Below, piece after piece: positions 4,503-61,140 of a stretch of DNA of 64,000 nt. The position numbers were made by a program, and so were the translations under genes. The notes beneath the pieces are model-generated. The model was not told the origin of the DNA, ran no database searches, and was given only the letters and a program-made list of their open reading frames with translations. Positions within the stretch are counted from its first letter, which is position 1. Each line of letters opens with the position of its first letter. Source of the stretch: an uncultured Clostridia bacterium (lineage in GTDB: Bacteria; Bacillota; Clostridia; Christensenellales; UBA1242); assembly GCA_947649575.1 (NCBI GenBank), contig CANSRZ010000002.1, positions 68,049 through 132,048 of the forward strand, given 5' to 3'.

Positions 4503-4528
4503 CCCCGCCTCCTTTTGTTTTCTTCTAT

Positions 4529-4647
4529 CTTCTTTTTTGAAAAAAAGAAGCAAAAGAAAACTATTAAACGTTTTAATAAATTCGATTTAACTTTAATTTT
4601 CTTTATATTAAACTCGCGTATTTAATAAAGCGTTTAAGAATTTTTTT
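4529..4647 (+). repeat. Composite palindromic element copy a (P1 hairpin + CAAAAGAAAAC + long hairpin + T-run), plus-strand orientation
   Basis: P1 is CTTCTTTTTTGAAAAAAAGAAG at 4529-4550 and the linker CAAAAGAAAAC at 4551-4561. The stem TTAAACGTTTTAATAAAT (4564-4581) pairs with ATTTAATAAAGCGTTTAA (4620-4637), followed by T7. About 120 nt align with 8130-8250. Confidence 0.8.
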
Positions 4648-4685
4648 ATTATCTAAAATAAGAAACTTTCACTTAACATTTCGAA

Positions 4686-4798: not shown

Positions 4799-6631
4799 TT
4801 AAGCCTCGCCGCGTAAAATCTTGCCACGCTCGCGCATACGCATGTTGTGGTCAAGGATAATCTTTCTTATTCTCATGCTCTTTGGCGTAACTTCCAAAAT
4901 TTCATCGTCAGCCAAAAATTCAATAGCGTCTTCAAGGCTAAGCTTCTTAGGTGGAGTTAATCTAAGCGCCTCGTCAGAGCCAGACGCACGGCAGTTTGAA
5001 AGATGTTTTTTCTTGCAAACATTAACAACAATGTCATCACCCTTAGGGTTCTGCCCGACAACCATGCCTGCGTAAACAGGAACGCCTGCCCCAATAAACA
5101 AATCGCCACGCTCTTGTGCATTGAAAAGCCCATATACAATTGCCTCTCCGCTTTCATGAGCAATAAGTGATCCATATTCTCTGCGATTGATTTCGCCTTT
5201 CCATGGCTGATAATCTTCAAAAATAGAGTTGATAACGCCCTCGCCTCGTGTATCAGTCAAAAGTTCGCTTTTAAAGCCAAACAGCCCACGCTCTGGAATA
5301 AGGAATTCCATTTTCATACGGCTTCCATGAGGAGTCATGCCAATAAGTTCGCCTTTGCGCACGCCCATTTTCATCATGACTGTACCCGTGCAGTCCTCTG
5401 GCACGTCAAGGAAGAGTCTGTCAATAGGCTCGCACTTAACACCATTAATATTTTTAATCAAAACCTTAGGCATTGAAACTTGAAATTCATAACCATCACG
5501 TCTCATGTTTTCAATAAGGATAGAAAGGTGCATTTCGCCACGACCTGAAACTTGAAAGCGTTCTGCTGTGTCGCCGTCCTCAACTTTGAGTGATAAGTCT
5601 TTAACTGCTTCTTTATAAAGTCTTTCTCTAATATGACGAGATGTAACATATTTGCCCTCTTTGCCAGCAAATGGGCTGTCATTAACCATAAAGGTCATCT
5701 CAACAGATGGCTCAGCAATTTTAACAAATTCAAGAGGTTTGATTTCTGCACCGTCACAAATTGTGTCACCAATCTGAACATCAGTCAAGCCTGCCACACA
5801 AACGATTTCCCCAATAGGAACATTTTCAACAGGAACACGTTTAACGCCCTCAAACACAAACAAACTTACAATTTTTGAACGAACTTGCTTGCTCTGGTCA
5901 TGATAATTGCAAAGCACAACATTTTGTCCAACGCTAAGCTTTCCTTGTGTAAGTTTGCCAACAGCAAGTTTGCCAACATAATCATTATGCTCTGCGGAAG
6001 ATATAAGCATTTGCGCTGGCTTATCTGAGTCTCCCTCTGGTGCTGGAATATGAGAAATGATTGTTTCAAAAAGTGGCTTCATGTCTATGCCTTTCTCATC
6101 TTTGTTTGTAGATGCAATGCCTTGTCTTGCAGAAGCAAAAACGAATGGCGAATTAAGTTGTTCTTCGTCAGCATCAAGTTCAAGGAACAGTTCAAGCACT
6201 TCGTCAATAACTTCGTCAATTCTGGCGTCAGCTCTGTCAACCTTATTGACAACCACGATAACTTTAAGCTTAAGCGCCAGAGCTCTTTCAAGCACAAACC
6301 TTGTTTGAGGCATTGGTCCCTCATATGCGTCAACAACCAAAAGCACTCCGTCCACCATTTTAAGAACGCGCTCCACTTCGCCGCCAAAGTCAGCGTGTCC
6401 TGGCGTGTCTATAACGTTGATTTTTACGTCATTATAAAGGCAAGAGCAATTCTTTGACAAAATAGTAATCCCTCTTTCTCTTTCAAGTGCATTGCTATCC
6501 ATAACACGGTCTTCCACCACTTGATTATCGCGGAAAACACTACCCTGTTTTAAAAGCGCGTCAACAAGACTTGTTTTGCCGTGGTCAACGTGAGCAATGA
6601 TTGCAATGTTTCTAATCTTTTCGTTTTTCAT
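4799..6631 (-). CDS. typA: Translational GTPase TypA/BipA
   Basis: [43 protein letters not shown]. The ORF-track N-terminus (6679) is probably an over-extension, so the start is set at ATG 6631. Confidence 0.93.
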
Positions 6632-6730
6632 AATAATAAAGTCCTTTTGAAAATAAAGTTTAATCGTTCCCTCTATCAATTAACTAATAAAGTATAACAC
6701 ACTTTAACGAATAATACAAGCCATGCAACA

Positions 6731-6756
6731 AAAAAAGTGCCGAGTGGCACTTTTTT
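6731..6756. terminator. Bidirectional intrinsic terminator downstream of rdgB
   Basis: AAAAAAGTGCC-gagt-GGCACTTTTTT. Confidence 0.75.
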
Positions 6757-6795
6757 ATTTTGTATCTATAACATTTTTTGTAATTTTATTTGTTT

Positions 6796-7395
6796 TTATA
6801 GTCTTTTCCCAAGGTCTTTCTTCAACATTTCTACTGCTCGCCCACGATGAGAAACTCTGTTTTTCTCTTCATTTGTTGCTTCTCCAAAAGTTTTGCCAAG
6901 TTCAGTTGAATAGAATAGGCAATCATAACCAAAACTTCTGTCGCCGATTTCATGTTCAGCAATATTGCCAAATGTTTTGCCCTCATAATGTTTATAACTT
7001 CCGTCCTCATTCATTTTGACTATGCAACATAACATATGCGCTGATCGATCATCTTTATCTTTGAGTGCGTTTAACAATTTGCCTCTATTTGCATCGTCAT
7101 CATGATAACCTGCAAACCTTGCAGAATAAATTCCCGGCGCTCCGCCAAGAGCATCAACACAAAGACCGCTGTCATCAGCAATAATTGTAGCGCATTCACC
7201 CTTTTCTTTCAAAAATTTATAAACTGCTTTTGCTTTGATAAGTGAGTTTTCTAAAAATGTTGTTCCGTCTTCTTCAATCTCTTCAAAAAAGCCAATGTCT
7301 TCAAGTGCTTTTACTTCATAGTCTGGAAACATTTCCTTGAATTCTTTGATTTTATGGTCATTGTTTGATGCTAACACCAAAATTTTATTTTGCAT
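6796..7395 (-). CDS. rdgB: Non-canonical purine NTP pyrophosphatase (RdgB/HAM1 family)
   Basis: 199 aa. LASNNDHKIKEF, DSGLCVDALGGAPGIYSARF, FGYD, SHRG motifs. Confidence 0.88.
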   Translation of the reverse strand: MQNKILVLASNNDHKIKEFKEMFPDYEVKALEDIGFFEEIEEDGTTFLENSLIKAKAVYKFLKEKGECATIIADDSGLCVDALGGAPGIYSARFAGYHDDDANRGKLLNALKDKDDRSAHMLCCIVKMNEDGSYKHYEGKTFGNIAEHEIGDRSFGYDCLFYSTELGKTFGEATNEEKNRVSHRGRAVEMLKKDLGKRL

Positions 7396-7406
7396 AATTT
7401 TCTCCT

Positions 7407-8120
7407 TTAATTTAATAATTTATTTAACTCTTTACATTTTCCTTCATCCATTTCTGGCACATCGTTAAGACGATATGGAATTTTGAGGTCACTGTATTTA
7501 TGCACGCCAATTGTTTTGTAAGGAAGCAGTTCTATTTTTTCAATATTTGCATAGTTTTTCAAGAAATCTTTAAGTGCAAGCACGCTTTCTTCAGTGTCGT
7601 TTATGCCTGGCACAATAACTTGTCTTATCCACATTTTTTTGTTTAGTTTTTGGCATAAATTCAAAAAATCAATTGTTTTTTGCATATTTTGTCCTGTCAA
7701 ATCTTTAAACAGTTGATTATTGCACGCTTTGATATCCAGAATAACAAGGTCGACCAACTCCAAGATTTCCTCTTCCTTGCCTGTTCCATGCCCTGCGGTG
7801 TCAAGGCAAGAGTGAATATCATTCTTCTTGCACAATTTCAGGCATTCAATCAAGAAATCAGGTTGAAGAAGTGGCTCACCGCCTGAGAAAGTCACACCTC
7901 CATCTTTGCCATAATAGTTTTTATATCTTAGAATTTTATCGATGAGTTCTTTTGGGGTGAGTTCAATTTTCTTTTCACCAATGTTCCACGTTTCAGGATT
8001 ATGGCAATATTTACATCTAAACTGACAGCCCTGCAAAAAGACCACGAACCTTATCCCTGGTCCGTCAACTAGCCCCATTGTATCAAAACTTGAAATATTC
8101 CCTTTTATCATTTTTAGCAT
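7407..8120 (-). CDS. pflA: Pyruvate formate-lyase activating enzyme (radical SAM)
   Basis: 237 aa. GPGIRFVVFLQGCQFRCKYCHNPETW (CxxxCxxC), GGVTFSGGEPLLQ. Confidence 0.92.
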   Translation of the reverse strand: MLKMIKGNISSFDTMGLVDGPGIRFVVFLQGCQFRCKYCHNPETWNIGEKKIELTPKELIDKILRYKNYYGKDGGVTFSGGEPLLQPDFLIECLKLCKKNDIHSCLDTAGHGTGKEEEILELVDLVILDIKACNNQLFKDLTGQNMQKTIDFLNLCQKLNKKMWIRQVIVPGINDTEESVLALKDFLKNYANIEKIELLPYKTIGVHKYSDLKIPYRLNDVPEMDEGKCKELNKLLN

Positions 8121-8129
8121 TTTTCATCT

Positions 8130-8250
8130 CTTCTTTTCTTTTAAAGAAAAGAAGCAAAAGAAAACCTTTAACGCTTTAATAAATCCGCTTCAATATTATA
8201 TTGCTTTATAACTAATTTGCGTATTTAATAAAGCGTTAAGTGATTTTTTG
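8130..8250 (+). repeat. Composite palindromic element copy c (plus orientation) in the pflA leader
   Basis: P1 is CTTCTTTTCTTTTAAAGAAAAGAAG at 8130-8154 and the linker CAAAAGAAAAC at 8155-8165. The stem TTTAACGCTTTAATAAAT (8167-8184) pairs with ATTTAATAAAGCGTTAA (8223-8239), followed by T6. Confidence 0.8.
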
Positions 8251-8298
8251 TTTTCTAAATATATTTTAGTTTTTTATAAGTTATTAAAAGTAAATTTC

Positions 8299-8378
8299 AT
8301 TTGCGATGCGAAGATAAGAAACTTATCGAGTATCGCAAATTATTTTTCTTTTGGATACTTTTCTTGAAAGAAAAGTAT
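8299..8378 (-). repeat. Composite palindromic element copy d (minus orientation), directly after the helicase stop
   Basis: P1 variant ATACTTTTCTTGAAAGAAAAGTAT at 8355-8378, 7 nt after the stop at 8385. Nested hairpin ATTTGCGAT (8299-8307) / ATCGCAAAT (8332-8340) with inner GATAAG/CTTATC. Confidence 0.75.
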
Positions 8379-8384
8379 CACAAG

Positions 8385-11300
8385 CTATTTGCTAGCCTTT
8401 TCAATTTCTTTGACTATTGAACTGATAACTGCCGTTGGATTATGCCACCAATCACGGCTCCAAACGCGCATAACTTTCCAGCCTTTTGATTTCAAGAATT
8501 GATTTCTAAACACATCGCGCTCTAAAACTGAATTTGACGATTTTGTCACTTCCTCATCGGTTTCAATTCCTAAAAGATATTTATCCTTTTTCTTGTCATA
8601 AACAGCAATAGAAATCTTGCTGTTAGAATTGCCCAAGTTAAGGTCTGTTTTATAGCCCAATTTATTAAGTTTTTCAGCAATCTGGTTTTCAATAGGAAGC
8701 AGGCTTAATAATCTTGGCTTTGTCATAACGCTTGTGCCAAAACTATTTAAAATTGTTTTAACCTCTTCTGTATTGCCATTAGAAACCGCTCTTACATAAG
8801 TCAAATAGCTACGCAAAAGTTTTGGTCCAACATGCTTAGCAGAATCAACTTTAAGTTCTTCTGGCTCTATGCTTGTAACAACATAAATTTTTTGTTTAGC
8901 ACGAGTAATTGCAACATTCAATCTATTTTCGCCACCCTCGTTTGAAAGCGAGCCAAATGTTGCATTAACTTTGCCAAACTCATTTTTAGCATATCCAATT
9001 GAGAAGATAATTATGTCACGCTCATCACCTTGAACATTTTCAAGATTCTTTACAAACAAGCTTACATCTTCACCGTTTTCAACACGATTGCATTCTTTTA
9101 AATAAAGATTTCTGAATTCAACGTCTTCAAAACATTTTTGCTCAATAAGTTCTTCAATACAGTTTTCTTGCTCAACGTTAAATGTGATGACCCCTATTGT
9201 TTCTTTATTCTTGCGGGTTTTGAAAATAGTCTTTATCAACTCGACAACACGTTTGGCTTCTGTTTCATTTCTACGATCTCTCCAAACGCCAGGCACAAGC
9301 ACTCTTTCAATCGGCTTATGTTTGATATTTTTTGAAACATTTGGAGCAATTTGCAAACTCCCAGAATAGAAAGCCTTATTTGAGAAATCAATAAGTTCCT
9401 CATTTTTACTTCTATAGTGATAAGTAATATTTGAGCTTGAATATCTTGAAACCGCCAAATCAAGCAAAGACTCCACTTCAAGCGCAGCCTGAGTTGTATA
9501 ATCAAGGTCATCTTCCACGCCTGCACCCATATAGCGTTTCATAAATGTAGTTGTTGGACGAAGCTGCTTTGCATCACCCGCAACAACAATTCGATTGCCT
9601 CTATAAATTGACGGAATAGTGTTTTCAATAAACACCTGAGAAGCCTCATCAAACAAAACTATATCAAACAAATTTCGCTTTAGTGGCAAAATTGAAGAAA
9701 CATTTTCAGGCGACAACAGCCAGCAAGGGAAAAGCTTGAAGAGATAATCACCATAAACTTCCGTTGTTTTTCTGATAGACCAGAAGTTCTGCTTTTTTGC
9801 AATTTGATAAAGATAATCTTTGCTTGCAGTGCTTCCGTCAATCATCTTTTTATATTCTTCATTAAATGTCTGCATAGCAATTTTCTTGCTTACTTCATTC
9901 AATTGTGCTTTAAGGCTAACAACTCTTGCTCTGATGTTTTCAAAGTCAACAGTGGCAGACAAAATGCTGTGTTTTTCCTCCTCACACTTAACAATTTCGT
10001 GATAAATTCTAACAGGCAAAACTGCTTTAAGCACTGCCATAAATTTAGGGAAAGTGCTTCCGTTTTCATAAGCAAAATCAAGCACATACTTTTGATTTTC
10101 ATCCAAGTTTTTAAGAATTCTGTTTGTGTCGCTAAGTTTAACATAATTTTCAACCGCCCACAAAAGCAAGCGTAAAATTTGATTATTGCCGTTAAGCAAG
10201 CCCTCAACTGCAAGAAGATATCCACTTTCTGTTAAAATATTTTGCAAGAAAGTGTAATCTTGAAGATATTCGTCAACCGCTTGCAAGGTTTCTTTAACCT
10301 CTTTTTTAACAATGCTTTCTTTTCTAAGCATATTGATTTTAGCAAACGGATAAAGTGGAAAAACAAAACAACTTGTTTTCAAAAAGTTTTCTTGCTTTGG
10401 ATATTCATATTTAGCAATCAATTTGATAAGAGCGTTGCTGTTTATATCGTTTTTAACTTCGTTATAATATGTCAAAACCTGTCTTGCATATTTGTATTTT
10501 TGCGTGTCGAACAATGCTCGTCTTGAAGCAAACAATCTTTGAAGTTTAGCCTGAGATTCAGCCACAACATGCACGCTTAAATTTTCTTTCAAGGCGTCAA
10601 CAAAAGGATTTTTCTTTTTCTCTTCAACAAAGTTGAAATAAAGTTCTGCCTTATTTTTCTCTTCCAATATACTGAGTGCCGAAACAAGCTCTTGATAATT
10701 TAAAGACATGATTTTTTTGTCTTTTTGCATTTCTTTATAAAGTGCATATTCTGTGCTTTTCTTGCCAATCTTATAAGAATTGTAATACATTTCTTGAAGT
10801 GAAAGCCCGAACTCTGTTTTTTCATTCAAGCAGTTTGAAATAGTATTAAGGTTTTCTATTTCATAATTTAAACGCTTTTCAAGGTCAACATATTCTTTAT
10901 ACAACTTTTCATCATAAGAAGATTTCATCACTTTTTCATGAAAGTCTTGACAACGCTTATAAAATTCGTGCTTCTCTTTCTCGGCGTCAACAATAAACAT
11001 TGCCTTTTCGTTAAGATTTGAAAGACGATTATAAACAACTTCCAATGCCGCTTTCTTTTGAGAAACAACAAGCACTTTTTTGTTCTTGCAAATAGCATCC
11101 GCAATCACATTAACAATTGTTTGGCTCTTTCCTGTTCCAGGAGGTCCATAAATCACCATATTGCCTTTCTCGTTAACATTTCTCACAACTTGCTCTTGCG
11201 CATAGTCAACGTTATTGATAAGGAACAAATCATTGCATTTGGTCTGTTTATGCTTGATTTTGCCTGCATTTAAAAGTTCATTGATAGAATCATTTGTAAG

Positions 11301-12137
11301 ATGTTTCTTTTCAAGCGCTGAGTAATCTTGATAAATGGAGTTTGCCAAACTGCATCTTGAAAGCAAACATAAATTTTTAACTTCAAGAGTATTTGCCGTT
11401 CCTGGCTCGCCAAATTTATTGAATGAATAAAGTTTTTTGTCGTTTTTATAAGCTATCTTTATGCCAAATTCTTTAAGATAGTCAATCAAGCCTTGGATAG
11501 AGCCAAATCTTGCTTTGATTGAAGAAAACTCCATTTCCATATCTTGTAAATTGAGGTGCTTGCTGTTTGCAATTGCAAGCATAAGCGCTTTATTAAGTTG
11601 GATTTGCTCGCCATATTTCAAGCAAATATTGATATTAGAGTCATCCAAAACATCAATCTCAACAGGGAACATCAACAGCGGAGCTTTGAATGCCAAATCG
11701 CGCACATTGCCATACACAAAAGGATAGCACAAGAATAGTTCATATCTGCCTGTTTCTTTTTCAATCTCTTCAATTTCACGTTTAAGGGTTTTTAAGTTAT
11801 TGCCCTCTTGCTCGTAAACTTTTTTGATAAAATTACGTTTTTCATTTTCATATTTTTGCTTTTCACTATCATCGCTGAAAGTTTTGGCAGGATATTTTGC
11901 AGAAACATTGTTTGCGCTTGCAATCAAATCTTTCATGCTTTTGCTGAAAATGTTGAAAGGAACTGACTTTCCACTCATTAAGATATCCAAAAATTCATCA
12001 GTTTTTTCACCGTTGCAAAACAAAATACGACCTATGTCATAGCCGTTTTTCTTGTTAAAACTTTTCAGATAAAGGCTTCTGTTTTTTCCGCTTATTTCAA
12101 TAAGTCTTTCTTTGTAATATGTATAAATACTTTTCAT
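8385..12137 (-). CDS. Large SF1 (Upf1-like) helicase with DUF4011-like N-terminus and C-terminal Vsr/DUF559-like PD-(D/E)xK nuclease module (Hhe-like)
   Basis: 1250 aa. Motifs: YGPPGTGKSQT (Walker A), FDEASQ, YHYRS, VQGDERD, RLNVAITRAK. C-terminus: ISIAVYD..LGIETDE..RDVFRNQFLKSKGWKVMRVWSRDWW. RBS is GAGG 7 nt upstream. Confidence 0.85.
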   Translation of the reverse strand: MKSIYTYYKERLIEISGKNRSLYLKSFNKKNGYDIGRILFCNGEKTDEFLDILMSGKSVPFNIFSKSMKDLIASANNVSAKYPAKTFSDDSEKQKYENEKRNFIKKVYEQEGNNLKTLKREIEEIEKETGRYELFLCYPFVYGNVRDLAFKAPLLMFPVEIDVLDDSNINICLKYGEQIQLNKALMLAIANSKHLNLQDMEMEFSSIKARFGSIQGLIDYLKEFGIKIAYKNDKKLYSFNKFGEPGTANTLEVKNLCLLSRCSLANSIYQDYSALEKKHLTNDSINELLNAGKIKHKQTKCNDLFLINNVDYAQEQVVRNVNEKGNMVIYGPPGTGKSQTIVNVIADAICKNKKVLVVSQKKAALEVVYNRLSNLNEKAMFIVDAEKEKHEFYKRCQDFHEKVMKSSYDEKLYKEYVDLEKRLNYEIENLNTISNCLNEKTEFGLSLQEMYYNSYKIGKKSTEYALYKEMQKDKKIMSLNYQELVSALSILEEKNKAELYFNFVEEKKKNPFVDALKENLSVHVVAESQAKLQRLFASRRALFDTQKYKYARQVLTYYNEVKNDINSNALIKLIAKYEYPKQENFLKTSCFVFPLYPFAKINMLRKESIVKKEVKETLQAVDEYLQDYTFLQNILTESGYLLAVEGLLNGNNQILRLLLWAVENYVKLSDTNRILKNLDENQKYVLDFAYENGSTFPKFMAVLKAVLPVRIYHEIVKCEEEKHSILSATVDFENIRARVVSLKAQLNEVSKKIAMQTFNEEYKKMIDGSTASKDYLYQIAKKQNFWSIRKTTEVYGDYLFKLFPCWLLSPENVSSILPLKRNLFDIVLFDEASQVFIENTIPSIYRGNRIVVAGDAKQLRPTTTFMKRYMGAGVEDDLDYTTQAALEVESLLDLAVSRYSSSNITYHYRSKNEELIDFSNKAFYSGSLQIAPNVSKNIKHKPIERVLVPGVWRDRRNETEAKRVVELIKTIFKTRKNKETIGVITFNVEQENCIEELIEQKCFEDVEFRNLYLKECNRVENGEDVSLFVKNLENVQGDERDIIIFSIGYAKNEFGKVNATFGSLSNEGGENRLNVAITRAKQKIYVVTSIEPEELKVDSAKHVGPKLLRSYLTYVRAVSNGNTEEVKTILNSFGTSVMTKPRLLSLLPIENQIAEKLNKLGYKTDLNLGNSNSKISIAVYDKKKDKYLLGIETDEEVTKSSNSVLERDVFRNQFLKSKGWKVMRVWSRDWWHNPTAVISSIVKEIEKASK

Positions 12138-12274
12138 TTTTTCAACCTCATATAAAAATTAAGATAGGCCAAAAACAGCCTATCCTAATTATAAAACAAA
12201 ATATAGAATTTTCAAAATGCTTACGCCAGTTTTTAGAAATTTTATTAATTTATAGAAAGTTAAAAATAACATAA

Positions 12275-12361
12275 AACAAAGCCTTTCGCATAAGTAAAAG
12301 ACTTTAAGAAAGGCTTTGTTTTTAGTTTTCTTTTGCTTACTTTTCTTTAAAAGAAAAGTAA
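12275..12361 (-). repeat. Composite palindromic element copy e, directly after the pflB stop (P1 + linker + intrinsic terminator)
   Basis: P1 is TTACTTTTCTTTAAAAGAAAAGTAA at 12337-12361, 7 nt after the stop. Linker GTTTTCTTTTG at 12325-12335. Terminator stem AAACAAAGCCTTTC/GAAAGGCTTTGTTT at 12275-12321. Confidence 0.8.
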
Positions 12362-12367
12362 TGTGAT

Positions 12368-14623
12368 CTAAACTTTTTCGTGGAAAGTACGAGCAATAAC
12401 TTCTTCTTGGTGAGCGCGAGATAACTTGTTAAAATTAACAGCATATCCTGACACACGGATAGTTAATGTAGGATATTTTTCAGGATTATTCATAGCGTCA
12501 ATCAACTTTTCGCGATCCAAAACATTTACATTTAAGTGCTGAGCTCCTTGTGCGAAATATCCGTCTAAAAGAGAAACTAAGTTTTTAATTCTTCCATTCT
12601 CGTCGTGTCCGAGTGCATTTGGAATAATTGAAAATGTGTTTGAAATTCCGTCTTGACAGCAGTCGCAATAAGGTATTTTTGCAACAGAGTTAAGTGAAGC
12701 AAGCGCTCCTGAATTATCTCTTCCATGCATTGGGTTAGCGCCAGGTGCAAATGCACATCCGCCTTGACGTCCGTCAGGAGTTGTGCCTGTCTTTTTGCCA
12801 TACATTACGTTTGAAGTGATTGTAAGTGCAGACAATGTATGTTTTGCGTCTCTGTAAAGTTTATGTTTCTTTAAAGCGCCAATAAAATGTTGTACAATTT
12901 CAACAGCAATTTGGTCAACGCGGTCATCATCATTGCCGTATTTTGGATAGTCGCCCTCAACCTTAAAATCAACCGCCACCCCTTGCTCGTTACGCACAGG
13001 AGTAACCTTTGCATATTTAATTGCAGAAAGTGAATCTGTTGCAACAGAAAGTCCAGCAATTCCAAAAGCCATAAGCCTTTCAACGTCAGTGTCATGAAGA
13101 GCCATTTGTCCAGCCTCATATGCATACTTGTCATGCATATAGTGGATAATGTTCATGGCGTCAACATAGGTTGAAGCAACCTTATCAAGTGTTTCAAAGT
13201 AAGATTTTTTAACTTTGTCAAAATTAAGCACCTTGTCAGTCATCTTTTTAACGCCATTAACAACAAGCTTGCCACTCTTTTCATCAACGCCCTCATTGAT
13301 TGAATAAAGCAGTGATTTTGCAAGATTGCAACGTGCGCCAAAGAACTGCATTTGTTTGCCAACTTTCATGGCAGAAACACAGCAAGCGATTGCATAATCA
13401 TTGCCATAAATAGGCTTCATAACATCGTCGCTTTCATATTGAATAGAGTCAGTCAATATAGAAATCTTAGCACAGAATTTTTTAAAGTTCATAGGAAGTT
13501 TTGTTGACCAAAGCACAGTTAAGTTTGGTTCTGGACTTGGGTCAAGGTTAACAAGTGTGTGCAAAAATCTGAATGAATTTTTTGTAACAAGACTCTTTTT
13601 GTCATCAGCCATTCCGCCAACGCTTTCTGTAACCCAAGTTGGGTCACCTGCAAAAACTTCATCATAATCAGGCGTTCTTAAATGACGAACAAGGCGAAGT
13701 TTGATAACAAATTGATCAACAAGTTCTTGTGCTTCCGCTTCAGTCATAGCTCCGTTTTCCAAATCACGTTCAACATAAATATCAAGGAAAGTTGAAGTGC
13801 GCCCCAAACTCATAGCCGCGCCGTTGTTCTCTTTGATTGCTGCCAAGTATGCAAAATATAGCCATTGGAAAGCTTCATAAGCATTTGTCGCTGGCTGAGA
13901 AATATCATAGCCATAGCTTTTGCCAAGTTCTTTAATTTCGCCAAGCGCTCTGATTTGCATAGAGATTTCTTCGCGGTGGCGGATATTCTCCTCACTAGTC
14001 ACATCAAGATGTCCCTCTGCTAAATCCTTTTTCTTTTCTTCAATAAGTCTATCAATTCCATAAAGAGCAACTCTGCGATAGTCGCCGATAATTCTTCCTC
14101 GACCATAAGCGTCTGGAAGCCCTGTCAAAAGCCCAGCCGAACGCGCTCTTCTGATTTCTGGAGTGTAAGCATCAAACACGCCGTCATTGTGAGTTTTTCT
14201 GATAGTTGTAAAAATCTCTTCAAATTTTGGAGATAACTTTTTATTATATGCTCCAAGTGCTTGCTTAGCAGTTCTAAGTCCGCCATAAAGATTAACAATC
14301 CTTTTTAAAGGTTTGTCTGTTTGAAGTCCAACAACAACTTCGTTCTTTTTATCAATATAGCCTGCCTTGAAAGAATTGATTCCTGAAATATTTTTAAGGT
14401 CAACATCCAATAGTCCTACTTGACGTTCCTTTGCCAAAAGTTTTTCACATTTAGCCCAAACTTTAGCAGTTTTTTCACTTTTGCCAGCCAAAAAGCTATC
14501 ATCTCCGCGATATTCTTTATAGTTTGAAAGTATAAAGTTTTGGACGTCAATTTTATTCTTCCAATCTTCACCTTTAAAGCCTTTCCAAGCGGCTGATTTA
14601 TCTAAAATAACTTGTTCTTTCAT
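12368..14623 (-). CDS. pflB: Formate C-acetyltransferase (pyruvate formate-lyase, glycyl radical enzyme)
   Basis: 751 aa. Active-site ACCVSAM and C-terminal glycyl-radical motif [11 protein letters not shown]. Confidence 0.95.
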
Positions 14624-14756: not shown

Positions 14757-14786
14757 AGAAAAAAGTTACATCAAATGTAACTTTTT
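14757..14786 (-). terminator. Intrinsic terminator at the end of the 327-aa lipoprotein gene
   Basis: AAAAGTTACAT-caa-ATGTAACTTTT overlapping the stop codon. Confidence 0.6.
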
Positions 14787-15768
14787 ATTGAAATCTAATG
14801 GTATTTAAAATTGTCTTTTCTAAGTTTGAATATTGAATCATATGCTCATAATCTTTATCTTTTTTCTTGCCTGCCGATTGCATAATAACGCCATTGCCTT
14901 TATCTTTGCAATCTTTGTTGACTGATGGAATGCTTTCTGCCAAAACTTTATCTTTCATGTCTTCTTCAACATCCAAATGATATCTGCAGTCTGGGCAATT
15001 TTCAAGCTCAATTTCAGCACATTCTTCACAATCTTTGTCAGAATTATCCAACACCTCTAAGCTTGTTTCTTCACAATCTTCACATTCTTTGTCACAACAA
15101 TTTTGTTCATCTTGCTTGCATTCTTCGCATTCTTTAATACATGGACTTTCGTTCTCTTCGCAGCTTTTTTCATCCTCTTCTGTCACAACATTTTCTTCAA
15201 CTTCATCGCTCTCTTCTTGCAAAGCAACTTCTTTGATTTTCAACTCGTCCATGTTTTCAAAACTTGTAGGCTCTGCTTGGCTAACCCACTCAAAATCAGC
15301 TTCAAACTTTTCTTCTCCAACAGGCAAGGAAACAACAAAATCATAAAGATCATCAAGATTTCTTCTAAGGTCAATATAAAAATTTCTGCCGTCAAACTTG
15401 CCGTCGTTGCCTCTAATAATATTAAAGCCATACATGTCTTTGGTTAGGTTGATTAAAAGTTGGTCAAAATTGAGTTCGTCAACAGTCAAAGGCTCTTGAA
15501 AAGCAAATCTCAGCCAAATGCCGTCTTCAACAGCCTCCATAGTTTTGTCGTGCAAACTAACGCCAAGCGCTGGCATAGGATAAGAGCCTTTTAAAGCAGT
15601 TGTAAAAAGCTCGTCAATCTTGCTTGCATCCTCTTGGGTTATTTCTATTTTATATCCATTATTGTATGCGTCAAACATAATCTCCTCTTTAAGTGCATCA
15701 GGCGAAGAGCAGCTGCCTGATGAAAACATTGTACAAATTGCCATGAAAGCAAATAAGATTTTTAACAT
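14785..15768 (-). CDS. Putative lipoprotein with acidic, Cys-rich (multiple CxxC) C-terminal half
   Basis: 327 aa. Signal peptide ending SSGSC. The stretch CEENESPCIKECEECKQDEQNCCDKECEDCEE...CEECAEIELENCPDCRYH sits in a Glu/Asp-rich context. Confidence 0.7.
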   Translation of the reverse strand: MLKILFAFMAICTMFSSGSCSSPDALKEEIMFDAYNNGYKIEITQEDASKIDELFTTALKGSYPMPALGVSLHDKTMEAVEDGIWLRFAFQEPLTVDELNFDQLLINLTKDMYGFNIIRGNDGKFDGRNFYIDLRRNLDDLYDFVVSLPVGEEKFEADFEWVSQAEPTSFENMDELKIKEVALQEESDEVEENVVTEEDEKSCEENESPCIKECEECKQDEQNCCDKECEDCEETSLEVLDNSDKDCEECAEIELENCPDCRYHLDVEEDMKDKVLAESIPSVNKDCKDKGNGVIMQSAGKKKDKDYEHMIQYSNLEKTILNTIRFQ

Positions 15769-20043: not shown

Positions 20044-20120
20044 GGCAGCATAGCTCAGCTGGCTAGAGCGCACGATTCATACTCGTGAGGTCACTGGTTC
20101 GATCCCAGTTGCTGCTACCA
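20044..20120 (+). tRNA. tRNA-Met (anticodon CAU), elongator type, CCA encoded
   Basis: GGCAGCA acceptor, GCTC-AGCTGGCTA-GAGC D-arm, CACGA-TTCATAC-TCGTG anticodon arm, ACTGG-TTCGATC-CCAGT T-arm, TGCTGCT-A-CCA. Closely resembles Bacillus elongator tRNA-Met as I recall it. Ile2(CAU) is not formally excluded. Confidence 0.9.
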
Positions 20121-30863: not shown

Positions 30864-30995
30864 GACGATATTATAGCATAATGAAACACAAATTGCAAGA
30901 TAAAAACAAATTGATAAAAGTTTTATTTTTAATAAAATCAAACAAGTAATTATTGTTTTAAATTTTTATTTTAAATAATAAAAGTTAAAGTCAAA

Positions 30996-31086
30996 ATAAA
31001 AGCCTTTATTAACTTTTAAATAGTTAATAAAGGCTTTTATTTTTAGTTTTCTTTCTCTTCTTTTCTTTAAAAGAAAAGAAGAGAAA
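30996..31086 (-). repeat. Composite palindromic element copy f, directly after the jag stop
   Basis: Perfect 35-nt palindrome TTTCTCTTCTTTTCTTTAAAAGAAAAGAAGAGAAA at 31052-31086, 4 nt after the stop. Terminator stem ATAAAAGCCTTTATTAAC/GTTAATAAAGGCTTTTAT at 30996-31040. Confidence 0.8.
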
Positions 31087-35401: not shown

Positions 35402-35516
35402 TCATTAATTTAAAAATTTCTCTCTACAGTGAAAATAAAAGGTTATAGCGATTTTGCAGCCAGATTCTGCGTGATTATTTTTCTTTTATAATTTTAATTA
35501 AAATAAATAAAAAGTT

Positions 35517-35603
35517 AACAAAAGCCTTTTTGATTTTAATAATAAAATTCAAAAAGGCTTTTGTTTAGTTTTCTTTTGCTTCTTTTCTTTAAAAGAAAAG
35601 AAG
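35517..35603 (-). repeat. Composite palindromic element copy g, directly after the dnaN stop
   Basis: P1 is CTTCTTTTCTTTAAAAGAAAAGAAG at 35579-35603, 5 nt after the stop. Linker GTTTTCTTTTG at 35568-35578. Terminator stem AACAAAAGCCTTTTTGA/TTCAAAAAGGCTTTTGTT at 35517-35565. Confidence 0.8.
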
Positions 35604-60034: not shown

Positions 60035-60748
60035 ATGGAAGAAATAAGACTATTAAGACCTGAAGATATTGATGTAAAAGTTAAAAAAGTTATTGATGGC
60101 AAAGTGTTGCTCTTATTGTATAAAACATCACGAGTTGACATGGCAATCTTGGATGAAGTGTTTGGGGTTGAAAACTGGTGTGATGATTACAAAGAGGTTA
60201 AAGGTAATCTATACTGTGGTATAGGTGTTCGCACTGAGAAAACAGAAGACTTTGTTTGGAAATGGGATTGCGGCATTGAAAGCAAAGAAGATGAGGGCAA
60301 CCAAAAGAAAGGTGAGGCAAGTGATGCTTTCAAAAGAGCTGGTTTTAAACTTGGTATTGGCAGAGAGTTATATACCGCGCCAGTAATATGGGTAGATGCG
60401 GAAACAGTTTCAGATGGAAAAATGTTCAAGTTGAAAGATAGATATGCGAGTTATTCAGTAAATGAAATTGAATATAGCACTAATCGCGCAATCTCAAAAT
60501 TGGTTATCGTAGACAAACATGGCAATCAAGTTTATCCAAAAACAATGGGCAACAAGCAACCTGCTGAGCCGCCAAAGTCACCAGAAAAGATTATATGTGA
60601 ACGCTGCAGAAAAGAAATTGTAGGGCGTTCAGTAAACGGCTCATTTAGAACACCAGAGCAAATTAAAGAGAGTTGCAAAGGTTTATGCTTAGAGTGCTAT
60701 AAAGAAGAAACTAAACTATTGCCAAATAACGAAGTGGAGGTTAAATAA
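60035..60748 (+). CDS. Rad52/Sak-type single-strand annealing protein with C-terminal Zn-ribbon
   Basis: 237 aa. ..NLYCGIGV...GEASDAFKRAGFKLGIGRELY.. The tail carries CERCRKE...CLECYKE. Confidence 0.75.
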   Translation: MEEIRLLRPEDIDVKVKKVIDGKVLLLLYKTSRVDMAILDEVFGVENWCDDYKEVKGNLYCGIGVRTEKTEDFVWKWDCGIESKEDEGNQKKGEASDAFKRAGFKLGIGRELYTAPVIWVDAETVSDGKMFKLKDRYASYSVNEIEYSTNRAISKLVIVDKHGNQVYPKTMGNKQPAEPPKSPEKIICERCRKEIVGRSVNGSFRTPEQIKESCKGLCLECYKEETKLLPNNEVEVK

Positions 60749-61140
60749 TGAATAAGGTTATTTTACAAGGAAATGTTACAAAAGATGTTGAGCTCATAAC
60801 AACGCAAGCAGGCAAATTTATTGCAAATTTCAGCCTTGCAGTTAGAAGAAAATATGGCGATAAAGATGGTAATGAAATTACTGATTTTCATAATTGTGTT
60901 GCCTTTAACAAGACTGCAGAAATACTAAACAAATATGTAAAGAAAGGGCACAAGTTGCTTGTGTCAGGCGAACTTGTTTATGATACTTACGAAGATAAAA
61001 CAGGAGCAAAAAAGACTATTGCTAAAATTATGGTTGATGAGGTTGATTTAATCAATCCTAAGCCAGCTGAAACAGCAAATACAAAAGTTGCACCGCACCC
61101 AGAATTGACAGAGGTTATTGACCCTGACTTGCCATTCTAG
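60748..61140 (+). CDS. ssb: Single-stranded DNA-binding protein
   Basis: 130 aa. MNKVILQGNVTKDVEL OB fold. Acidic tip ..IDPDLPF. Confidence 0.9.
   Translation: MNKVILQGNVTKDVELITTQAGKFIANFSLAVRRKYGDKDGNEITDFHNCVAFNKTAEILNKYVKKGHKLLVSGELVYDTYEDKTGAKKTIAKIMVDEVDLINPKPAETANTKVAPHPELTEVIDPDLPF

Follow-up and report, generated by a model that had tools for sequence, protein, structure and literature searches.

A predicted compact member of the Hhe/ProA helicase superfamily is an old resident of the pflB-pflA junction in an uncultured Clostridia bacterium

We analysed a gene lying between pflB and pflA in an uncultured Clostridia bacterium (GenBank assembly GCA_947649575.1), within a 64-kb stretch of contig CANSRZ010000002.1 that we call the window and whose positions serve as coordinates throughout. 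The gene encodes a 1250-amino-acid (aa) protein that combines an N-terminal DUF4011 region, a superfamily 1 (SF1) helicase and a C-terminal Vsr-fold domain. Its insertion between pflB and pflA is real, derived, single and old and, judged by profile scores, the protein belongs to a compact branch of the Hhe/ProA superfamily that fails the curated family thresholds. The find is a fairly ordinary one: the gene has long resided at the locus under tight conservation and did not arrive recently as cargo carried by repeats. What was known is the superfamily; what is new is a compact, non-equivalog branch with core-like behaviour, a possibly rewired nuclease site and a reused pflB-pflA junction. The features of the locus that carry the argument are as follows.

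8385-12137 (stop codon included), minus strand: helicase gene, encoding the 1250-aa DUF4011/SF1 helicase/Vsr-fold protein from an ATG start (open reading frame (ORF) list; Pfam, PADLOC and NCBIfam scans; 118 full-length homologs)
12368-14623, minus strand: pflB (pyruvate formate-lyase, PFL), the upstream flank (Pfam PFL-like, E 4.5e-202; Gly_radical)
7407-8120, minus strand: pflA (PFL activase), the downstream flank (Pfam Radical_SAM, Fer4_12)
12188-12215, minus strand: promoter-like site of the sigma-70 type for the helicase gene, TTGAAA-16-TATAAT (scan, 11/12 matches)
12157-12190, minus strand: 15-bp perfect hairpin in the helicase 5´ leader, directly after the -10 box (fold z-score -4.3)

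The first-pass annotation of this DNA had taken pflB and pflA to be normally neighbours and had reported a single 1250-aa ORF in the block that parts them here. Both statements hold: the two genes are ancestrally contiguous, with adjacency confirmed in 16 loci of relatives, and the ORF was found between them, all three genes being on the minus strand. The junction in the comparison loci (labelled L followed by a number) is given below, with the percent identity of PflA to that of the window.

L007-L022, 14 of the 15 GTDB loci with both genes: PflA 42-67%; pflB-pflA gap of 0-32 bp at eight loci and 170-600 bp at four, widening to 1.3 kb in L014 and to 2.9 kb in L012; the helicase at none of them
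L023, the 15th GTDB locus: PflA 39%; gene order reversed; no helicase
L022, partly syntenic with the window: PflA 67%; gap 32 bp
L032, broadly syntenic: PflA 72%; gap 8 bp
L113: PflA 74%; gap 14 bp
L031: PflA 81%; helicase directly upstream of pflA, the pflB side not being on the contig
L029 and L030: PflA 89-90%; helicase upstream of pflA, the pflB side not being on the contig

The helicase is present at the pfl locus in every relative whose PflA is at least 81% identical, and the nearest species representatives, labelled Bacilli, Tenericutes, Eubacteriales or Candidatus Aphodocola, have PflA proteins at most 67% identical. The best explanation of these sequence comparisons would be an insertion that followed the split from relatives with PflA at most 74% identical and preceded the split from those with at least 81%. 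The gene is found at the same locus, with housekeeping-like conservation, in the close relatives, but is absent from the locus in relatives at or below 74%; this agrees in part with an outcome that the first-pass annotation had named as speaking against its proposal.

Divergence of the gene and its neighbours was compared between the window and L031 by the method of Nei and Gojobori, as synonymous divergence (pS) and the ratio of nonsynonymous to synonymous substitution (dN/dS).

helicase: pS 0.70, dN/dS 0.043
PflA: pS 0.67, dN/dS 0.076
RdgB: pS 0.56, dN/dS 0.152

At the protein level, the same pair of loci share 88.7% identity for the helicase, 81% for PflA and 76% for RdgB. Since its pS is like that of its neighbours and its dN/dS is low, we conclude that the helicase gene has co-diverged in place with them under constraint. 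The recent acquisition that had been proposed finds no support in these values or in the presence of the gene at the locus in all relatives with PflA at least 81% identical. The composition of the gene shows no anomaly either, its GC content of ~0.31-0.38 falling inside the range of the neighbouring genes.

Two side observations concern this region in other genomes. Across window positions 4799-9555, DNA identity to L029 is 99.3% for the 3´ part of the helicase gene, 96.7% for typA, 87.7% for pflA and 79.5% for rdgB; for rdgB, L029 is as distant from the window as is L031, a different species, though the window and L029 otherwise represent the same species. This mosaic suggests that a divergent pflA-rdgB segment was brought in by recombination. 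The pflB-pflA junction also holds other genes in other lineages, namely a YhcG/DUF1016 PDDEXK nuclease gene in L014 (L014:9003-9890, minus strand) and a three-gene ABC-2 transporter in L012 (L012:5267-7816, minus strand). Together with the helicase, these insertions in different lineages make the junction appear permissive, having received at least three independent insertions.

The block containing the helicase gene had also been described as bracketed by copies of a composite palindromic element, which was read as a sign of acquired cargo. The intergenic elements concerned are these.

12231-12358, unstranded: element of sub-type B, 10 bp after the pflB stop codon (similar to 30956-31078 and 35484-35600, which belong to the copies at 30956-31084 and 35484-35603; fold z-score -4.95)
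8121-8259, unstranded: element of sub-type A, immediately upstream of pflA (79% identical to 4518-4657; fold z-score -5.6)
8260-8384, unstranded: second palindromic unit just after the helicase stop codon (weaker core-like copy at 8340-8377, hairpin at ~8296-8338; z-score -5.75)

The repeats are real, but the two elements that flank the block are of different sub-types and have the core alone in common. This 32-bp core, TTTTCTTTTGCTTCTTTTCTTTAAAAGAAAAG, occurs in five copies in the window (94-100% identity, E 1e-8 to 1e-12), of which those at 8133-8164 and 12326-12358 are in inverted orientation. We considered whether the gene could be recently acquired Hhe cargo, moved by the flanking elements acting as terminal inverted repeats. 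A 34-bp inverted match that is 97% identical (8133-8165 against 12358-12325) fits such a history, as do the splitting of an otherwise conserved gene pair and a 4209-bp Logan contig, 99.3% identical, that ends inside both repeats. The contig ends are explained by the multi-copy repeat, their terminal 30-mers recurring at ~4.6, 31.0 and 35.6 kb, and the contig was rejected as evidence of strain-level presence or absence. The element also follows unrelated genes: three copies begin 8-12 bp beyond the stop codon of a minus-strand gene, pflB among them. No good copies of the core were found in the loci of relatives. In L031 the helicase gene is fused to pflA through ATGA with no repeat at the junction, while in L029 and L030 the unit corresponding to window 8256-8382 is inverted, its copies bracketing an extra 190-aa ORF. 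Homologous cassettes elsewhere are free of repeats, and DNA homology to them stops inside the repeats of the window. Neither a transposase or integrase adjacent to the helicase block nor a target-site duplication in its flanks was visible, synonymous divergence is saturated, at the same level as in the neighbours, and the Hhe cut-off is missed (see below). Because the repeats are absent at the L031 junction, rearranged in L029 and L030 and missing at the other cassettes, they came after the helicase and did not deliver it. Repeat-borne cargo is thus largely refuted, and we regard it as very improbable.

The repeats behave like a lineage-specific, dispersed intergenic element of the REP (repetitive extragenic palindromic) or MITE (miniature inverted-repeat transposable element) kind, in which hairpin modules that vary between copies accompany the 32-bp core and which also supplies terminator-like hairpins. 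The copy at 12231-12358 consists of an AU-rich palindrome and a 15-bp hairpin with a U-rich tract behind it, and from these sequence features is likely to act as the pflB terminator; no U-tract was found after the unit at 8260-8384. The repeats matched no Rfam family, and a search for palindromes of fixed spacing returned one copy only, no more than expected by chance. The extra ORF between the helicase gene and pflA (L029:1222-1794, L030:1455-2027) encodes a GVCWD motif and has as its sole family match a weak, transglutaminase-like one; as a candidate transposase for the repeats, the L029 ORF was rejected on account of that match.

We then compared the gene with its relatives at other loci. 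Five unrelated neighbourhoods house homologs at 85, 83, 81, 78 and 72% identity, and the gene is missing from the syntenic pfl locus of L022, L032 and L113. DNA similarity among homologous cassettes is confined to window positions 12216-8395, that is, promoter and ORF, which indicates that the gene relocates as a promoter-plus-ORF unit; each homologous cassette has its own downstream hairpin. The homology begins at 12216, the upstream edge of the promoter-like site, and the -10 box is kept in the cassettes of L026, L028 and L003, bearing out the earlier proposal that the gene has its own promoter. The 12157-12190 leader hairpin is specific to the window, the homologous leaders of L026 and L028 having none; an operator function is conceivable, as is a role as a 5´-leader element in stability or attenuation.

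Scans of metagenomic and viral contigs with the family alignment recovered 77 metagenomic loci at 40-76% identity, none of them pfl-linked. No conserved partner gene was found across these loci (203 flanking-gene clusters), which fits a stand-alone system. The 141 neighbour clusters drawn from the 77 loci are mostly metabolic or housekeeping by Pfam, with sporadic specific PADLOC hits, and in the window the other 46 ORFs gave generic ATPase hits and no convincing defence gene against the defence models. The window itself is origin-proximal core chromosome, encoding DnaA, DnaN, DnaB, ParA/B, GidA/B and MnmE. Plasmids yielded 565 records of distant superfamily members, all below 38% identity, among which bona fide ProA adjoins insertion sequence (IS) elements or integrases. 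Over evolutionary time the helicase gene relocates like accessory genes, yet without the usual marks of defence islands or mobile elements.

The three-part architecture noted at first reading, a DUF4011-like opening followed by an Upf1-like SF1 core and a nuclease-fold tail, was recovered by Pfam, with DUF4011, AAA_11, AAA_12 and MTES_1575 all above their gathering scores. The parts map to the window as follows.

11583-12107, minus strand: DUF4011 N-terminal region, residues 11-185 (Pfam 32.3 bits against a gathering score of 22.2, E 1.2e-7)
10707-11207, minus strand: first part of helicase domain 1A, residues 311-477, with Walker A GPPGTGKS at 331-338 (AAA_11, AAA_19; IGHMBP2 match)
9768-10706, minus strand: less conserved insertion of ~310 aa splitting domain 1A, residues 478-790 (per-bin conservation 0.49-0.67; BLASTP map to ProA)
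8871-9767, minus strand: remainder of domain 1A, holding the Walker B motif DEASQ (830-834), and domain 2A, holding YHYRS, QGDERD and R1072..R1079 (Pfam AAA_12, 890-1089; invariant residues; Sen1 and Dna2 matches)
8403-8690, minus strand: C-terminal Vsr/DUF559-fold domain (MTES_1575), residues 1150-1245 (Pfam E 1e-21; AlphaFold2 (AF2) and Foldseek)

AAA_11 is split, residues 311-477 plus a second stretch (67.9 bits), AAA_12 covers residues 890-1089 (79.5 bits), and MTES_1575 scores 77.2 bits against a gathering score of 38.2, DUF559 being marginal (21.0 against 20.6). Both the nuclease-type and the DUF4011 matches, the lack of which would have spoken against the first reading, are therefore significant. 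Conservation was assessed in an alignment of the 118 full-length homologs, which are 50-85% identical to the window helicase and uniform in length; 274 columns are at least 98% conserved. All the helicase motifs that had been listed are present at this level of conservation, GPPGTGKS (331-338), DEASQ (830-834), YHYRS (906-910), QGDERD (1036-1041) and NVAITRAK (1074-1081, with R1072 and R1079), as are G854, D855 and Q858. Walker A, Walker B (DEAxQ) and motifs III, V and VI of an Upf1-like SF1 helicase are thus intact and conserved. The nearest solved structures by sequence are generic Upf1-like motors: IGHMBP2 (E 5e-11), Sen1 (4e-8) and Dna2 (8e-4).

Within the N-terminal region, residues 8-36 and 121-158, the DUF4011 N-terminal signature, are nearly invariant among homologs. 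In an AF2 model of residues 1-310, residues 30-260 reach a predicted local distance difference test score (pLDDT) above 85. The first 22 residues, which are invariant, come out disordered in this isolated-domain model and probably dock on the motor. The model predicts for the DUF4011 region (window 11208-12137) a long helix and then a six-stranded sheet; Foldseek found no structural relative for it, the best PDB match having an E value of 1.6 and BFVD giving nothing convincing.

DUF4011, SF1 helicase and Vsr-like nuclease-fold domain in one polypeptide encoded by a single gene is also the make-up of Hhe, to which the first-pass annotation had assigned the protein. Hhe is reportedly the single-gene system of Gao et al. 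2020; together with ProA (NCBIfam 'anti-phage protein ProA') it makes up the experimentally named, anti-phage part of the superfamily. The relationship at superfamily level stands, with significant matches (E 2e-112 and 1e-84) and shared architecture, but membership of Hhe does not: the protein scores 376.7 bits on the NCBIfam Hhe equivalog (NF042953) against a cut-off of 2000, its best match spans positions 942-1682 of the 1797 in the profile rather than running end-to-end, and it is ~550-650 aa shorter. The PADLOC Hhe model (PDLC02194), for which as for the other PADLOC models there is no curated cut-off, gave 283 bits over positions 1335-1781 of 1911. ProA (NCBIfam NF058533) and PDC-S37 (PADLOC PDLC05009) are the best-scoring family matches, at 553.6 and 548.6 bits, the top whole-protein matches all being to models of defence systems, and share the module order DUF4011, split AAA_11, AAA_12 and MTES_1575; the ProA score is higher than that for Hhe but also far under its cut-off of 1500, and for ProA, PDC-S37 and Hhe alike the C-terminal half of the profile alone was matched.

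Annotated plasmid homologs served as ProA positive controls to calibrate these scores. WP_004118855 (Enterobacter IncF plasmid, 1963 aa) reached 2223.8 bits on ProA and 1181 on PDC-S37, and WP_104442400 (Acinetobacter plasmid, 1718 aa) reached 1782.5 and 1146. True members thus pass the ProA cut-off easily, and ProA and PDC-S37 describe essentially one family. Both also score 775-825 bits on the Hhe model, above the window protein, which by this measure is farther from Hhe than the ProA proteins are. BLASTP against bona fide ProA aligned window residues 127-464 with 480-812 and 735-1231 with 1235-1695 at 25-31% identity. The window protein lacks an N-terminal extension of ~350 aa (DUF4011 starts at residue 375-379 in the controls and at 11 here, so that the N-terminal regions are not collinear), ~150 aa of the middle insertion of ProA and its C-terminal tail of ~250 aa. 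The tail carries DUF3320 in the 1963-aa control; the 1718-aa control passes without this domain, which is hence not strictly defining. The controls further differ in being plasmid-borne beside IS110 or an integrase, whereas the window gene is chromosomal among core genes.

At E <= 1e-30, an exhaustive HMMER search gave 7,407 representatives of 50%-identity clusters. Of the 150 nearest, the majority measure 1200-1450 aa and stop directly behind the nuclease-fold domain, indicating that the compact form is a large superfamily branch and not peculiar to this genome. Likeness to other Upf1-like SF1B helicases (IGHMBP2, Sen1, Dna2) and to the Mokosh proteins MkoA and MkoC lies in the helicase core motifs (MkoA, 110 bits) and is limited to the motor domains; none of these has DUF4011 or a Vsr-fold tail, and the nuclease of Dna2 is N-terminal and of another type.

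For the C-terminal ~100 residues, the Vsr/DUF559 PD-(D/E)xK module that had been proposed is upheld as a fold but not clearly as a canonical nuclease site. In addition to the MTES_1575 match, an AF2 model of residues 1091-1250 (pLDDT 78.6) matched 3hrl (Foldseek probability 1.00, TM 0.75) and the catalytic domain of the homing endonuclease I-Bth0305I (3r3p; probability 0.99, TM 0.73), by which the Vsr/DUF559 fold is established at the level of predicted structure; the window motif ERD...GW.V.RVW also resembles ERD...GWRVLIVW of Vsr. At the active site, the window protein has KISIA where ProA has RIDLG or CVDIA, placing a Ser at position 1176 in lieu of the ProA nuclease Asp, and this Ser is found in 112 of the 118 members. 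Alignment by hhalign to E. coli Vsr (a Vsr sequence 100% identical to 1cw0_A) likewise sets Ser1176 opposite the catalytic Asp51, weakly (probability 3.4%), and His69 of Vsr falls at a variable position, with no conserved equivalent. E1192 is Glu in 103 members and Gln in the other 15. Sequence searches of the PDB with the C-terminal domains of the window protein and of ProA gave no matches, so that the active-site register rests on the ProA BLASTP, MAFFT and the weak hhalign alignment to Vsr.

From these comparisons the catalytic competence of the domain is uncertain, the site being possibly rewired and possibly dead. If it were dead, the tail would serve as a DNA-recognition or oligomerisation module and any effect would come from ATP-dependent translocation or remodelling, a possibility that cuts across the defence and housekeeping readings weighed below. 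The Ser for Asp, the absent canonical His and the Gln at 1192 all agree with it. Against it, D1181, D1185, D1194, E1206-R-D1208 and WSRDWW show conservation of at least 98%. The Glu and the His are likewise missing from a bona fide ProA (L111), and the most divergent member, L099, has the two residues swapped (Asp1176, Ser1181), which suggests that one acidic residue is kept throughout; the Vsr alignment on which the Ser1176 assignment partly depends is also weak. On balance we consider a nuclease-dead tail rather unlikely.

As to function, we lean slightly towards a stand-alone Hhe/ProA-type nucleic-acid surveillance enzyme with a defence role, by analogy with the named relatives. In an ancestor of the lineage, a single insertion would have placed the promoter-plus-ORF cassette between the two pfl genes, and vertical inheritance under strong purifying selection would have followed, with the palindromic repeats, an unrelated dispersed element, spreading in the genome later. 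In the enzyme, the conserved DUF4011 module may, together with the large insertion in domain 1A, regulate or target an ATP-driven SF1B-type translocase, which would load on single-stranded nucleic acid arising from foreign (phage or plasmid) replication; the Vsr-fold tail would then nick, or at least clamp, DNA, so blocking the invader, or the infected cell, from replicating. The analogy is drawn because phage DNA-metabolism functions are reported to activate Hhe, which reportedly also turns toxic on co-expression with a phage trigger gene (10.1101/2024.10.10.617714). Substrate, trigger, nuclease activity and anti-phage role are all things we infer from homology.

Several observations weigh against a defence role. 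For the compact clade the case draws on homology, and yet the equivalog cut-offs of both Hhe and ProA are missed ~3-5-fold. PDC systems are explicitly presented as untested candidates (10.1101/2024.01.29.577857), which bears on the likeness to PDC-S37, and our literature search for PDC-S37 and ProA found no paper describing either. The neighbours are housekeeping genes in the window and at the 77 loci, around which no enrichment of defence genes or mobile elements was seen, and among viral sequences no relatives were found in IMG/VR and two weak hits only in phage records. The nuclease site is without the Asp of the ProA/Vsr type and without the His, and 15 of the 118 members have Gln in place of E1192. 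The constraint on the helicase is comparable to that on TypA (dN/dS 0.048, measured against L029), more like that on a core gene, and in L031 the helicase stop codon overlaps the pflA start codon (ATGA), a translational coupling that likewise looks more like a core gene. Finally, in P. aeruginosa the large DUF4011 gene flanking the defence hotspot cDHS1 is core, being present in every isolate (PMC10250203); it resembles the window gene as a large DUF4011 protein encoded by a core chromosomal gene rather than by variable cargo, a comparison made by shared domain annotation and not by sequence.

Much of this evidence would suit a genome-maintenance or nucleic-acid-processing enzyme, quasi-core in small-genome gut Bacilli and Clostridia and acting at replication forks, in repair or on RNA/DNA hybrids, whose likeness to Hhe and ProA reflects ancestry only and whose Vsr-fold domain serves for DNA binding or structure-specific nicking. 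Besides the housekeeping surroundings, the origin-proximal location, the L031 overlap and the P. aeruginosa precedent, such a role fits a dN/dS of 0.04, below that of PflA (0.08) and RdgB (0.15), the uniform length and 274 conserved columns of the 118 homologs, and a position that is stable within each species cluster. Helicase divergence also roughly scales with that of the few co-located markers, at 88.7% against 81% and 76% in L031 and 68% against 53% for RdgB in L082. Set against this are the absence of the gene from the L032, L113 and L022 loci, which otherwise keep gene order, the movement of the cassette among unrelated contexts at 72-85% identity, atypical of core genes, and the lack of a characterised housekeeping orthologue, the named relatives all being defence proteins. 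We therefore hold a housekeeping enzyme to be possible but not likely. Unlikely, too, is a superfamily member domesticated in small-genome gut Bacilli into a quasi-core, housekeeping surveillance or maintenance motor embedded in the pfl operon, with the coupling to pflA in one lineage and the dN/dS of 0.04, whose nuclease-fold domain has lost the canonical Asp and His.

Annotation by architecture would label the protein 'Hhe-like', and calibration against the curated cut-offs shows this to be an over-call. The label can hide a distinct compact clade, core-gene-like evolution outside defence islands and a possibly rewired or dead nuclease site. With more than 7,000 representatives at 50% identity in the superfamily, whether the compact branch is immune or housekeeping bears on the annotation of thousands of gut-metagenome genes.

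Some further features of the window were noted. The true start of pflA is probably the ATG at 8111, the annotated start (MLKMIKGN) likely lying 9 nt too far upstream, as PflA homologs begin MIKGN or MTKGN and are similar to the window PflA from residue 4-5. Upstream of pflB, a 327-aa ORF (14785-15768, minus strand) begins like a signal peptide, and its C-terminal half is rich in Cys and very acidic, repeating CEEC/CEDC motifs; its conservation in L022 is limited to the N-terminal 160 aa (38%). The only Rfam match at the gathering threshold in the 64 kb is one tRNA gene at 20044-20117 (plus strand). Elsewhere the window holds two genes of the Phage_integrase family and a Siphovirus Gp157-like gene, detected in a bulk scan, which suggest a prophage or its remnant, and an ORF resembling single-stranded DNA-binding protein at 60745-61137.

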